NCBI RefSeq assembly: GCF_003334765.1
Contig: NZ_QOWT01000004.1
Length of the DNA: 64,000 nt
Source of the DNA: Escherichia coli
GTDB taxonomy: Bacteria; Pseudomonadota; Gammaproteobacteria; Enterobacterales; Enterobacteriaceae
Reading direction: 5' to 3' (one strand)
Numbering within the stretch: position 1 is the stretch's first letter; each line of letters opens with the position of its first letter. The position numbers and the translations under genes are program-made. Below the pieces are notes generated by a model. That model saw only the letters and a program-made list of their open reading frames with translations. It did not search any database and was not told where the DNA came from. This document shows positions 11,636-30,316 of the stretch, one piece after another.

Positions 11636-11981
11636 AGCGGCCTGGCACACGCGTTTGATGGAAGACGGCGTTCAGGCAATGCGCGATTATCTTGCCGGAC
11701 TGGATATCGCTTCGCCAGAGCATCAGGTTCTGATGAACGTAACAGCAAAAAGCGAGGTCGCTCCGTCAATTATCAAAGAAAATCTCTCATTACACTTAAC
11801 TCATACGGTGAAATGGACTGAATCTCTCGATACATTTCTGAATATGCCAACCCCGGTAGCTTTCCTTGAAATAAGTAATAAGCCCTATTTGGGGAATATG
11901 TTAAATGATTTTGCTGGCGTGGATCAGCAACGAGTTATGCATTGTCGTAAAGCATTTAGTGATGCAAAGGTATTCAAATGA
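11622..11981 (+). pseudogene. ymdE: ymdE: FabD-like (malonyl-CoA:ACP transacylase C-terminal-like) gene fragment
   Basis: 119-codon ORF with a GTG start overlapping the dgcT stop; it resembles only the C-terminal portion of acyltransferases (VKWTESLDTF region) and lacks the catalytic N-terminal half. Annotated as a pseudogene/remnant in K-12 as far as I recall. Confidence 0.55.
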
Positions 11982-21954: not shown

Positions 21955-22488
21955 ATGAAAACGCGTATTCATGTTGTGCAGGGTGATATTACCAAACTGG
22001 CCGTTGATGTGATTGTGAATGCGGCTAATCCGTCATTAATGGGAGGCGGCGGCGTCGATGGGGCCATTCATCGCGCAGCGGGTCCGGCCCTGCTGGATGC
22101 TTGTTTAAAAGTCAGGCAACAGCAGGGCGATTGCCCTACGGGGCATGCCGTTATTACGCTTGCAGGCGATCTTCCCGCTAAAGCCGTAGTGCACACCGTC
22201 GGGCCAGTCTGGCGTGGTGGTGAACAAAACGAAGACCAGCTTTTGCAGGATGCCTATCTCAATAGCCTACGACTGGTGGCGGCAAACAGCTATACGTCAG
22301 TGGCTTTTCCTGCAATCAGTACTGGGGTTTATGGTTACCCTCGTGCGGCAGCGGCTGAAATCGCAGTAAAAACCGTTTCAGAATTTATTACCCGTCACGC
22401 TTTACCCGAACAGGTATACTTTGTCTGTTATGATGAAGAAAACGCCCACCTCTACGAAAGACTCCTTACCCAACAAGGAGATGAATGA
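21955..22488 (+). CDS. ymdB: Macrodomain protein YmdB (O-acetyl-ADP-ribose deacetylase; RNase III regulator)
   Basis: 177-aa ORF with macro-domain motifs ([23 protein letters not shown]). Confidence 0.9.
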
Positions 22489-22489
22489 T

Positions 22490-23911
22490 TTGCCCCGGCT
22501 GGCGAGCGCGGTGCTGCCACTGTGTTCGCAACATCCCGGTCAGTGTGGCCTTTTTCCTCTGGAGAAAAGTCTGGATGCGTTTGCCGCCCGGTATCGTCTG
22601 GCCGAAATGGCAGAGCATACGCTCGATGTTCAGTATTACATCTGGCAGGACGATATGTCGGGTCGGTTACTGTTTTCCGCCCTGTTAGCCGCAGCAAAGC
22701 GTGGCGTTCGCGTCCGTTTGTTGCTGGACGACAACAATACGCCCGGACTTGACGACATTTTACGCTTGCTTGACAGTCATCCACGCATTGAAGTCCGGCT
22801 TTTTAATCCTTTCTCGTTTCGCTTGCTGCGTCCGCTTGGTTATATCACCGACTTTTCCCGTCTTAATCGCCGTATGCACAATAAAAGTTTCACTGTCGAT
22901 GGCGTGGTGACCCTGGTGGGAGGACGAAATATTGGTGATGCCTATTTTGGAGCAGGGGAGGAGCCACTTTTTTCGGATTTAGATGTCATGGCAATAGGAC
23001 CCGTGGTAGAGGACGTTGCCGATGATTTCGCCCGCTACTGGTATTGCAAATCGGTTTCACCCTTACAGCAGGTGCTGGATGTCCCGGAGGGTGAAATGGC
23101 GGATCGCATCGAGTTACCCGCCTCCTGGCATAACGATGCCATGACGCATCGTTATTTACGCAAAATGGAATCCAGTCCATTTATAAATCATCTGGTTGAT
23201 GGAACATTGCCGCTTATCTGGGCGAAGACACGTTTATTAAGTGATGATCCGGCGAAAGGGGAGGGCAAGGCAAAACGGCATTCACTGTTACCGCAGCGCC
23301 TGTTCGATATCATGGGCTCACCCAGTGAACGCATCGATATTATCTCTTCCTATTTTGTACCGACACGCGCAGGTGTGGCGCAACTCTTACGGATGGTGAG
23401 AAAAGGGGTAAAGATTGCGATCCTAACCAATTCTCTTGCCGCTAACGATGTTGCTGTCGTCCATGCCGGATACGCGCGCTGGCGCAAAAAATTGCTCCGC
23501 TATGGCGTGGAATTATATGAACTCAAGCCGACGCGTGAACAAAGTAGTACGTTACACGATCGCGGCATAACCGGTAATTCCGGAGCCAGCCTGCATGCTA
23601 AAACCTTTAGCATCGATGGTAAAACGGTGTTTATCGGCTCTTTCAATTTCGATCCGCGTTCAACATTGCTCAATACTGAAATGGGCTTCGTGATAGAGAG
23701 CGAAACGCTGGCACAGTTAATTGATAAACGCTTTATTCAGAGCCAGTATGATGCGGCCTGGCAGCTCCGTCTGGACAGGTGGGGACGGATCAACTGGGTT
23801 GATCGTCATGCAAAGAAAGAGATTATTCTCAAAAAAGAACCCGCCACCAGTTTCTGGAAGCGGGTTATGGTCAGACTGGCGTCGATATTGCCCGTGGAAT
23901 GGTTATTGTAA
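22490..23911 (+). CDS. clsC: Cardiolipin synthase C (phospholipase D family, two HKD motifs)
   Basis: Two HxK(x)4D motifs (HNKSFTVDG and HAKTFSIDG). Start placed at the TTG at 22490, 2 nt after the ymdB stop, to give the 473-aa length I recall; an in-frame ATG at 22481 would give 476 aa, so the start is uncertain by a few codons. Confidence 0.85.
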   Translation: MPRLASAVLPLCSQHPGQCGLFPLEKSLDAFAARYRLAEMAEHTLDVQYYIWQDDMSGRLLFSALLAAAKRGVRVRLLLDDNNTPGLDDILRLLDSHPRIEVRLFNPFSFRLLRPLGYITDFSRLNRRMHNKSFTVDGVVTLVGGRNIGDAYFGAGEEPLFSDLDVMAIGPVVEDVADDFARYWYCKSVSPLQQVLDVPEGEMADRIELPASWHNDAMTHRYLRKMESSPFINHLVDGTLPLIWAKTRLLSDDPAKGEGKAKRHSLLPQRLFDIMGSPSERIDIISSYFVPTRAGVAQLLRMVRKGVKIAILTNSLAANDVAVVHAGYARWRKKLLRYGVELYELKPTREQSSTLHDRGITGNSGASLHAKTFSIDGKTVFIGSFNFDPRSTLLNTEMGFVIESETLAQLIDKRFIQSQYDAAWQLRLDRWGRINWVDRHAKKEIILKKEPATSFWKRVMVRLASILPVEWLL

Positions 23912-23918
23912 ATGTGGC

Positions 23919-25076
23919 TTAACGGGCTGGTGCTTTATCGTTCTCACGCTTAACAACCGGTTTACCAGAGAACAAAAACTTCAGTAACGGGATGCGCAAA
24001 TGAATTTCATACAGAATTATCGCAATCCCTACTACAAATATCAGGCCACAGAGAAAACCAAGCCAGTTGGAGGTGATGTGCGGTGTAATGTATGCGCCGA
24101 AAAACAGCGTTAACGGGTGGTGAACCAGATAGATAAACAGCGATGCGTTAACAAAATAAGTCACCCGCGCTGACTGGAAGTTAAGCAAACGGTGGCCAAA
24201 GGAGAAGACCACATTCACCATCCACAGACCGAGGACCATGGTGATCACCGACTCGGTTTCGTACATCCAGGCATCGCCACTGCCATAGCGCTGGTTGAGT
24301 AAATAAGCGACAAACGCCAATGCTGCTGCAAGGGTACAGCCACGAGACGGCGTGGTAAACAAGGCTTTAAGATGAGGGAAAATGAAAGCCAGTGCGCCGA
24401 GGATAAAGAACGGCAAATAAAACAGCGTTTGCATGACAATAAAATTGAACATGCCATTACTCAGAATGGGCGGATACACAATAAAAATCGTTCTTCTTAT
24501 TACCGCATAACCGATGCCGAGGCATAAAAAAATCACCGATAGTTTTACCATCGAGAATTTTTTATTCGTTTTATCAGAATTTTCTAAATTATTTCTGATG
24601 CGCTTAAATATCCATACGCACAGCGTCGTCATGACCACTAACACCAGTAAAAACCACAGGTGTGATATTAATTCCCAGGCCAACGTATTATATTTGTCAT
24701 ACAATGACAGCCCAGGCCAACTTTCCGCTTTTCCTTTGACATATTGCAGCATAATAAATTGCGGTAATGTCAGTAGGGGGATGGCTGTTAACATCGGGAT
24801 ACCTACACGTTCGACACGTACTTTCCACCATTTTTTCAAGGGATAGCGTAAAAAAAGCATGTAGGAAAAGTAGCCGGATATAACGAAAAATACCTGCATG
24901 CGGAACGAGTGGATGAAGTCATTAAAAAGGGTCAGCCACAATGATGATTCGGCGCTATTCACATGCCATGTATGGCTCGAATAGATTAAAGAAATATGAA
25001 AAGGTATCCCTAACAACATCAGCCAGGCGCGGATGGAGTCGAGGAAATATTCACGTTGCGCGGGTACTGGGTTCAT
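23919..25076 (-). CDS. opgC: OPG (osmoregulated periplasmic glucan) succinyltransferase OpgC/MdoC
   Basis: 385-aa polytopic membrane acyltransferase-3-family ORF; convergent with clsC with only 7 bp between stop codons. Confidence 0.9.
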
Positions 25077-29541: not shown

Positions 29542-29550
29542 AAACGTAGT

Positions 29551-29650
29551 TGCCTGATGCGCTACGCTTATCAGGCCTACATCGTTCCTGCAATTTATTG
29601 ATTTTGCAAGACTTTGTGGGTCGGATAAGGCGTTCACGCCGCATCCGGCA
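29551..29650. repeat. REP/BIME cluster in the opgH-yceK intergenic region
   Basis: Palindromic units tgcctgatgcgctacgcttatcaggcctac and gtcggataaggcgttcacgccgcatccggca. Confidence 0.7.
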
Positions 29651-29671
29651 AAAACAACGAGCCAATAAAAA

Positions 29672-29697
29672 TACCGGCGTTATGCCGGTATTTTTTT
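29672..29697 (+). terminator. Intrinsic terminator downstream of opgH and the REP elements
   Basis: Stem taccggc / gccggta with loop gttat, followed by T7. Confidence 0.65.
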
Positions 29698-29713
29698 ACG
29701 AAAGAGGTATCAA

Positions 29714-29941
29714 ATGCGTTTAATTGTGGTGAGCATCATGGTGACCTTGCTGAGTGGCTGTGGCAGCATTATTAGTCGCACTATACCGGGGCAGGGGCAT
29801 GGCAACCAATATTATCCCGGTGTGCAATGGGATGTGCGTGACTCCGCCTGGCGTTATGTCACGATCCTTGATCTGCCATTCTCTCTGGTTTTTGATACTT
29901 TACTGCTGCCGATCGACATTCATCATGGCCCGTATGAGTGA
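29714..29941 (+). CDS. yceK: Lipoprotein YceK
   Basis: 75-aa ORF with lipobox (LLSGC) signal peptide. Confidence 0.8.
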   Translation: MRLIVVSIMVTLLSGCGSIISRTIPGQGHGNQYYPGVQWDVRDSAWRYVTILDLPFSLVFDTLLLPIDIHHGPYE

Positions 29942-30316
29942 TTAACGTTCATCCCACTCATCAGCTGCTGCGCGTCCTTCCTCGGTATCCAGCGGTGGCT
30001 CAAGCTGAAATTCCCCCTCGTCCCATTCATGTAATGTATTCTCTTCCTGCCACTCCTGGCGTATCTCTATCTCATCATAGTCGCCATCAAAAACACTTTG
30101 CGCGGCTTCACCGCTAAGCATAGGTAAACATTCACCTTCTTCCCCTTCGTCGGCAAAAAACTCAACTTGCCACATGATGTCGCCGTCCTGCAAAACGTAT
30201 TTTTGGGCATTGAACTGTTGCACATTCGCATCTTCGGCGTCGATGCCGGGGTTGTCTGCAAGAAATTCTTCGCGTGCAGCGTCAATGGCTTCTTCAAGCG
30301 TTGCGTACATGGTCAT
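29942..30316 (-). CDS. msyB: Acidic protein MsyB
   Basis: Highly acidic 124-aa product (start at second Met, MTMYATLEEAID); convergent with yceK with zero spacer between the stop codons. Confidence 0.85.
   Translation of the reverse strand: MTMYATLEEAIDAAREEFLADNPGIDAEDANVQQFNAQKYVLQDGDIMWQVEFFADEGEEGECLPMLSGEAAQSVFDGDYDEIEIRQEWQEENTLHEWDEGEFQLEPPLDTEEGRAAADEWDER

Follow-up and report, generated by a model that had tools for sequence, protein, structure and literature searches.

Transcription terminators probably displaced inside or beyond the partner gene at two tight tail-to-tail junctions of Escherichia coli, clsC/opgC and yceK/msyB

Introduction

Convergent gene pairs whose transcripts overlap at their 3' ends have been collected for E. 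coli MG1655 with ExcludonFinder (NAR 2025, PMC12288877), in which a pair is accepted when the overlap occurs in 50% or more of the 58 RNA-seq sets. Among the resulting 165 convergent excludons the predicted terminator overlaps the partner in 146 pairs, and Table 1 of that work lists both of the pairs considered here, clsC-opgC and yceK-msyB, neither of which is described there individually. The two loci are already catalogued and represent a feature of a known kind: like the other excludons of the list, they consist of convergent neighbours with 3' overlap, the terminator lying mostly within the partner's transcription unit, and no difference in kind was found.

Bidirectional terminators between transcription units provide another point of comparison. 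The hairpin located between opgH and yceK resembles them in its flanking A-run and T-run, in the RNA ends found on both strands and in the compensatory changes of its stem. It differs from the usual examples in that it lies upstream of yceK, not between convergent genes, and a minus-strand transcript ending there would cross a whole gene. Rho-dependent termination of antisense or untranslated RNA (Peters et al. 2012; Adams et al. 2021) is matched on the yceK side by C-rich RNA past the stop codon, a bicyclomycin-sensitive end and the lack of a sharp 3' end, with no difference from the described class. The SEnd-seq work of Ju et al. (2019) and Wang et al. (2022) describes collision-driven termination at hundreds of convergent E. 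coli gene pairs; this model shares with the present loci the convergent geometry and a hairpin palindrome in the clsC RNA; however, classical signals explain three of the four transcript ends, one of them Rho-dependent, and the model is possible only for clsC.

The explanation that we prefer, with a probability of about 0.8, is that both loci are ordinary tail-to-tail junctions with terminators displaced inside or beyond the partner gene. To the catalogued loci the present analysis adds a synonymously constrained terminator embedded in codons, a yceK gene that seems to lie wholly within the 3'UTR of its convergent neighbour, Rho-dependent termination antisense to msyB, and the conservation of these elements across species.

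Results

Two tight convergent junctions

The analysed stretch of DNA (64,000 nucleotides, hereafter the window) covers the csg/ymdB-clsC/opgC/opgGH/yceK/msyB/mdtG/lpxL region of E. coli K-12, which was found in 5424 of 5426 complete E. coli genomes. From position 11640 onward the window is identical to MG1655 (offset 1083865), and upstream of this position it is without the IS3D copy that MG1655 has. The gene located just upstream of clsC encodes YmdB, a regulator of RNase III. The gene identities and ends of both pairs are the same in the RefSeq annotations of MG1655 and ER1709 and are as follows:

22490..23911, plus strand: clsC coding sequence with the MG1655 start (the PGAP start lies about 60 nt earlier); stop codon TAA at 23909-23911
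23912..23918, no strand: clsC/opgC spacer of 7 bp, ATGTGGC, between the stop codons
23919..25076, minus strand: opgC (mdoC) coding sequence; its stop codon reads TTA on the plus strand at 23919-23921
29714..29941, plus strand: yceK coding sequence, a 75-aa lipoprotein; stop codon TGA at 29939-29941
29942..30316, minus strand: msyB coding sequence; stop codon TTA at 29942-29944, abutting the yceK stop codon with a spacer of 0

In both pairs the genes are adjacent, on opposite strands and tail to tail, which is the geometry of an excludon. A sequence-only reading of the window had given the gaps as 7 bp for clsC/opgC and 0 for yceK/msyB, and the exact coordinates, in agreement with RefSeq K-12, bear this out.

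The gaps of the ten convergent junctions of the window are 0, 7, 39, 40, 41, 49, 63, 111, 118 and 735 bp. Two arbitrary 50-kb stretches of MG1655, used as controls, contributed 13 further convergent junctions, one of which (cueR/ybbJ) has a gap of 0 as well. In this small sample a gap of 7 bp or less was found at three of 23 junctions overall (approximately 1 in 8) and at one of the 13 outside the window; both junctions are at the short end of the gap distribution, yet they are not rare.

The conservation of the two gaps was followed in relatives. Of the 76 species-level yceK/msyB loci from Enterobacteriaceae and Erwiniaceae, 36 have a gap of exactly 0, formed by six different stop-stop hexamers, and 68 have one between −10 and +8, Pantoea having a 10-bp overlap. 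The abutment of yceK and msyB is ancient. The clsC/opgC gap varies, from 7 bp in Escherichia to 12-34 bp in Citrobacter, Salmonella and several others, and it is 0 or slightly negative in a few relatives; values of −123, −255 and −415 were probably artefacts of extending incomplete OpgC matches and were left uninterpreted. The conserved zero gap of yceK/msyB was considered as a sign of selection, which is unproven, as neutrality combined with deletion bias also predicts its persistence: only an insertion at that very site alters the gap without changing a protein. Since both terminators are located elsewhere (see below), nothing opposes the bacterial deletion bias at the yceK/msyB spacer. The spacers have probably shrunk to their present 7 and 0 bp for lack of any need at either junction, the stop signals being elsewhere, and we take the tight spacing to be a side effect of deletion bias, not something under selection.

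The opgC terminator lies within clsC

A folding scan of the RNA 3' of each stop codon placed an intrinsic terminator of opgC 64-100 nt past the opgC stop codon, inside clsC. The prediction was made blind, before the published 3' ends were compared. The elements concerned are:

23831..23866, minus strand: opgC intrinsic terminator, written into the clsC codons KKEPATSFWKRV; hairpin 23866->23837 (AACCCGCUUCCAGAAACUGGUGGCGGGUUC), U6 tract 23836->23831
23832..23918, minus strand: opgC 3'UTR of 87 nt, of which 80 nt lie antisense to the final 80 coding nucleotides of clsC

The folding energy of the hairpin is −18.6 to −19.9 kcal/mol, followed by the U6 tract, with z = −3.75 in comparison to shuffled sequences. 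A consensus promoter/terminator scan gave no hits at the two junctions, having overlooked the opgC terminator owing to a 1-nt internal mismatch in the stem. The published data agree with the prediction. A strong Term-seq end at 1107697 (−), corresponding to window position 23832, was reported by Adams et al. 2021 (PMC7815308, Supplementary file 1), where it is classed as 'antisense clsC' with exactly the predicted sequence and is listed under only one of three growth conditions. The TRS study (PMC10687069) gives 1107696/7 (−), window positions 23831/2, as 'Primary opgC' with an 89-nt 3'UTR. Thus, opgC has a G+C-rich hairpin with a U-tract, and two independent tables put the RNA 3' end in that tract: opgC ends at a canonical intrinsic terminator within the clsC coding sequence. 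Polymerase transcribing opgC passes the stop codon by 87 nt and halts at the hairpin and U6 tract antisense to these clsC codons.

The codons forming this terminator were compared with what the protein alone would require. The five stem wobble codons are GAA, CCC, AAG, CGG and GTT, and their joint probability under local codon usage (56 genes of the window) is 4.9e-4; the stem depends on the rare synonymous codons CCC, CGG and AAG, which are fixed in Escherichia, Salmonella and Citrobacter. When the last 45 clsC codons were resampled synonymously, four of 3000 sequences reached −18 kcal/mol, matching the real hairpin and U-tract. An antisense hairpin with a U-tract at −12 kcal/mol was reached by 6.5% of the resamplings; the amino acid motif of ClsC by itself makes some hairpin with a U-tract more likely on the antisense strand. 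In a clsC codon alignment of 14 genomes of Escherichia, Salmonella and Citrobacter, synonymous diversity in the 12-codon terminator window was 0.13 in comparison to a gene mean of 0.47, the lowest value of 442 windows. A hairpin is found at the same place, paired differently, in the more distant Cedecea and Buttiauxella. In Klebsiella and others, where clsC is absent beside opgC, opgC is followed by a conventional intergenic terminator 30-47 nt past its stop codon. The terminator embedded in clsC is under selection and conserved beyond coding need. The opgC terminator would be lost if the end of clsC were recoded or deleted, a point to consider in codon optimisation, recoding and gene deletion.

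The folding scan detected no hairpin with a U-tract downstream in the clsC RNA, and its first 300 nt contained no strong rut-like tract of C over G. The palindrome at 23837-23866 also folds as a hairpin in the clsC RNA, where it is without a U-tract. Neither the Adams table nor the TRS rows listed give a sharp plus-strand 3' end for clsC or for yceK. Termination of clsC is probably diffuse, by Rho or by polymerase collision. Collision-driven termination, in which converging polymerases stop each other and neither Rho nor an intrinsic terminator is at work, would mostly concern clsC, where it is helped by the missing downstream signals and by the hairpin at 23837-23866, an element of the type that positions collisions in the model. 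As an account of these junctions we regard it as unlikely, since three of the four ends have a classical signal behind them and the yceK-side end is bicyclomycin-sensitive; an end independent of both Rho and a U-tract and dependent on a converging polymerase was found neither for opgC and yceK nor for the minus-strand end attributed below to msyB.

A bidirectional terminator upstream of yceK

No terminator-like element was detected in 23 species between the msyB stop codon and the opgH hairpin, all of yceK included, and the first such element 3' of msyB is the reverse face of this hairpin, 45-60 nt beyond the yceK start codon. The two elements are:

29664..29697, no strand: opgH/yceK bidirectional intrinsic terminator; stem 29672-29678 / 29684-29690, A-run upstream and T7 downstream
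29665..29941, minus strand: putative msyB 3'UTR of 277 nt, antisense to the complete coding sequence of yceK, to its Shine-Dalgarno sequence and to 49 nt upstream

The plus face of the hairpin ends opgGH, and the sequence folds on both strands (z = −4.9 and −5.5). It is present in approximately 60 loci, and across genera three of the eight stem pairs show compensatory changes in 26 representative sequences. In the TRS tables (PMC10687069), the plus-strand ends 1113560/65 (window 29695-29700) are assigned as 'Primary opgH', and the minus-strand end 1113530 (window 29665), assigned to the 'yceK.opgH IGR', falls in the U-tract of the minus face. The element thus combines A-run and T-run flanks, RNA 3' ends on both strands and compensatory changes, as expected of a bidirectional terminator. 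The minus-strand end at 29665 is in the TRS tables only and is absent from the curated Adams list.

We infer that this end belongs to msyB, whose transcripts would cross all of yceK. According to the proposed mechanism, transcription of msyB, which is the final gene on the lpxL-mdtG-msyB strand, would continue through yceK until the reverse face of the opgH terminator halts it, and the resulting 277-nt 3'UTR would be complementary to yceK over its full length, ribosome-binding site included. An antisense promoter inside yceK or RNA processing could also be the source of the 29665 end; in the consensus scan this minus-strand region had no predicted promoter-like site. The Rfam families detected in the 21-32 kb part of the window were only REP-derived ones, in the opgH-yceK spacer, with no small RNA at either junction. 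A literature search on an msyB antisense RNA or 3'UTR returned nothing specific, and the SMRT-Cappable-seq supplements make no mention of these genes. If the proposed 3'UTR is real, yceK expression data that are not stranded are unreliable, and a yceK knockout also changes the msyB mRNA.

Transcript overlap and its possible regulatory role

The published data place the opgC end 80 nt inside clsC, a minus-strand end beyond yceK and a plus-strand Rho region inside msyB (described below). The sequence-only reading had proposed that the transcripts of both pairs overlap at their 3' ends, which is upheld by these mapped ends, inside or beyond the partner gene, and by the presence of both pairs in PMC12288877. 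It had also held that the junctions leave no room for intrinsic terminators. This was wrong: opgC has a terminator inside clsC with a mapped 3' end, and a minus-strand end is found at the opgH hairpin. Of the shared Rho-dependent termination that it proposed, the part that stood is the action of Rho on the yceK-side transcript (1114048 +); the sharing did not, the opgC end being intrinsic. In its full form, with no intrinsic terminator possible and both pairs relying on Rho together, this account is highly improbable. It could draw on spacers too short for a terminator, on the empty consensus scan at the junctions and on the activity of Rho on the yceK side, but intrinsic terminators with mapped 3' ends are available for opgC and at the expected msyB end site; the terminators are displaced from the junction, not absent, and for opgC the account is refuted. 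A zero-length spacer does not imply the lack of an intrinsic terminator, which can occupy the codons of the partner and constrain their synonymous sites.

The overlaps may, more tentatively, be selected regulatory devices. In such functional excludons, transcription of msyB under stress or in stationary phase would silence yceK through a full-length antisense 3'UTR, RNase III cleavage and polymerase interference, and the opgC 3'UTR would down-tune clsC, or the reverse; we consider this possible but doubtful. Both pairs belong to the excludon list of PMC12288877, in which excludon pairs in general show lower single-cell co-expression and higher synteny, the yceK/msyB layout is conserved across Enterobacteriaceae together with the hairpin beyond yceK, and the proposed msyB 3'UTR covers the yceK ribosome-binding site. 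On the other hand, double-stranded RNA validation with p19 failed for convergent pairs generally, the conservation of the zero spacer is also expected without selection, and in one directional RNA-seq study msyB and yceK were induced together (4.45-fold and 4.09-fold). With strand-specific read counting in that study, the co-induction would speak against strict mutual exclusion; without it, the yceK induction signal may be no more than the msyB 3'UTR. A bolder scheme, in which the msyB 3'UTR is a dedicated and conserved cis-antisense repressor acting on yceK as a whole that allows YceK to be made only when msyB is silent, and a clsC/opgC duplex tuned by YmdB forms the second of two envelope-stress switches built from displaced terminators, seems to us quite unlikely. 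The two loci are clean, conserved test cases for the regulatory effect of excludon-type overlaps.

Rho-dependent termination antisense to msyB

On the preferred reading, with stop signals inside or beyond the partner gene, the remaining end is that of yceK. The RNA past its stop codon has the following property:

29942..30200, plus strand: rut-like untranslated RNA 3' of the yceK stop codon, C-rich and G-poor, antisense to msyB; Rho peak at 30183

Over approximately 260 nt, C exceeds G by 0.12 to 0.21 per 80 nt, which is above the 95th-99th percentile of the window. The tract is C-rich and G-poor because it is antisense to the gene of the very acidic MsyB. A bicyclomycin-sensitive region at 1114048 (+), corresponding to window position 30183 and annotated as 'antisense msyB', is given in Supplementary file 2 of PMC7815308 with a Rho score of 5.3 (p = 4e-7), a call made at 800-nt resolution from low read counts (74, 11, 87 and 69). 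The peak falls at the end of the C-rich tract. Readthrough under Rho inhibition is thus found together with C-rich, G-poor untranslated RNA, and Rho would load on this RNA and halt transcription approximately 240 nt into msyB. The same Adams table (PMC7815308) also lists plus-strand Rho regions antisense to csgG, yceI and flgN, and the pattern of Rho acting inside the partner gene is seen at four of the ten convergent junctions of the window.

Transcription around yceK and msyB

In E. coli, only 16 nt separate the T-run of the opgH terminator, a bidirectional hairpin between opgH and yceK, from the yceK ATG (window 29691-29713), leaving no space for a promoter located 3' of the terminator. In the regions upstream of yceK at the species loci L006-L015 and L044-L058, a conserved -10-like element (TATACT) occupied the interval from the terminator to yceK. 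Citrobacter, Salmonella, Cedecea and others carried this element, and it was absent from Escherichia. Transcription of E. coli yceK may rely either on opgGH readthrough of the terminator or on a promoter 5' of the hairpin. The opgH-yceK spacer also contains REP-type palindromes (window 29545-29698), with the following Rfam matches located 5' of, or overlapping, the bidirectional terminator:

29573-29615, minus strand: ES036, over the gathering score
29619-29698: naRNA4, under the gathering score

In an RNA-seq study of LolCDE inhibition, msyB and yceK (window 29714-30316) were reported to have nearly equal induction (4.45-fold and 4.09-fold, respectively) and similar expression levels. As the inferred 3'UTR of msyB would span yceK, the paired values may represent one transcript if the reads were not counted in a strand-specific manner.

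Other convergent junctions

Published Rho-termination regions were found at three further positions in the window:

17185 (MG1655 1101050), plus strand: antisense to csgG, downstream of ycdZ
34120 (MG1655 1117985), plus strand: antisense to yceI, downstream of trhO
45882 (MG1655 1129747), plus strand: antisense to flgN, downstream of murJ

With these regions included, four of the window's ten convergent junctions share the pattern observed for yceK/msyB. The published list of convergent overlapping pairs (excludons) of MG1655 (ExcludonFinder, PMC12288877) also includes phoH-pgaD and murJ-flgN. Outside the window, it contains yidQ-yidR, one half of which is the yceK paralogue yidQ (YceK/YidQ lipoprotein family), and cueR/ybbJ (MG1655 514400/514401), another convergent pair with zero gap.

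The clsC/opgC junction

The 3' end of clsC and the 3'UTR of opgC form an 80-bp duplex. The gene lying directly 5' of clsC is:

21955-22488, same strand as clsC: ymdB, whose annotated role is to regulate RNase III activity

A connection between YmdB and the fate of this duplex is conceivable as pure speculation. The annotations disagree on the clsC start (window 22421-22490): PGAP (ER1709) places it approximately 60 nt further 5', giving a 59-nt overlap with ymdB, and in MG1655 it corresponds to window 22490, 2 nt past the ymdB stop.

Differences from MG1655 and insertion elements

IS3D, located between dgcT and ymdE in MG1655 (1094245-1095502), is missing from the window, which results in a 1266-bp coordinate shift relative to MG1655 upstream of 11640. 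The window (1-11641) thus differs from MG1655, and apart from this element the identity is 99.95-100%. The query spanning window 23000-25000, which covers the clsC 3' region and most of opgC, was matched in two pieces in NZ_CP133854.1 and NZ_CP081711.1, both E. coli genomes, and the features annotated under the split match included an IS5-family element (IS903B or ISKpn26).
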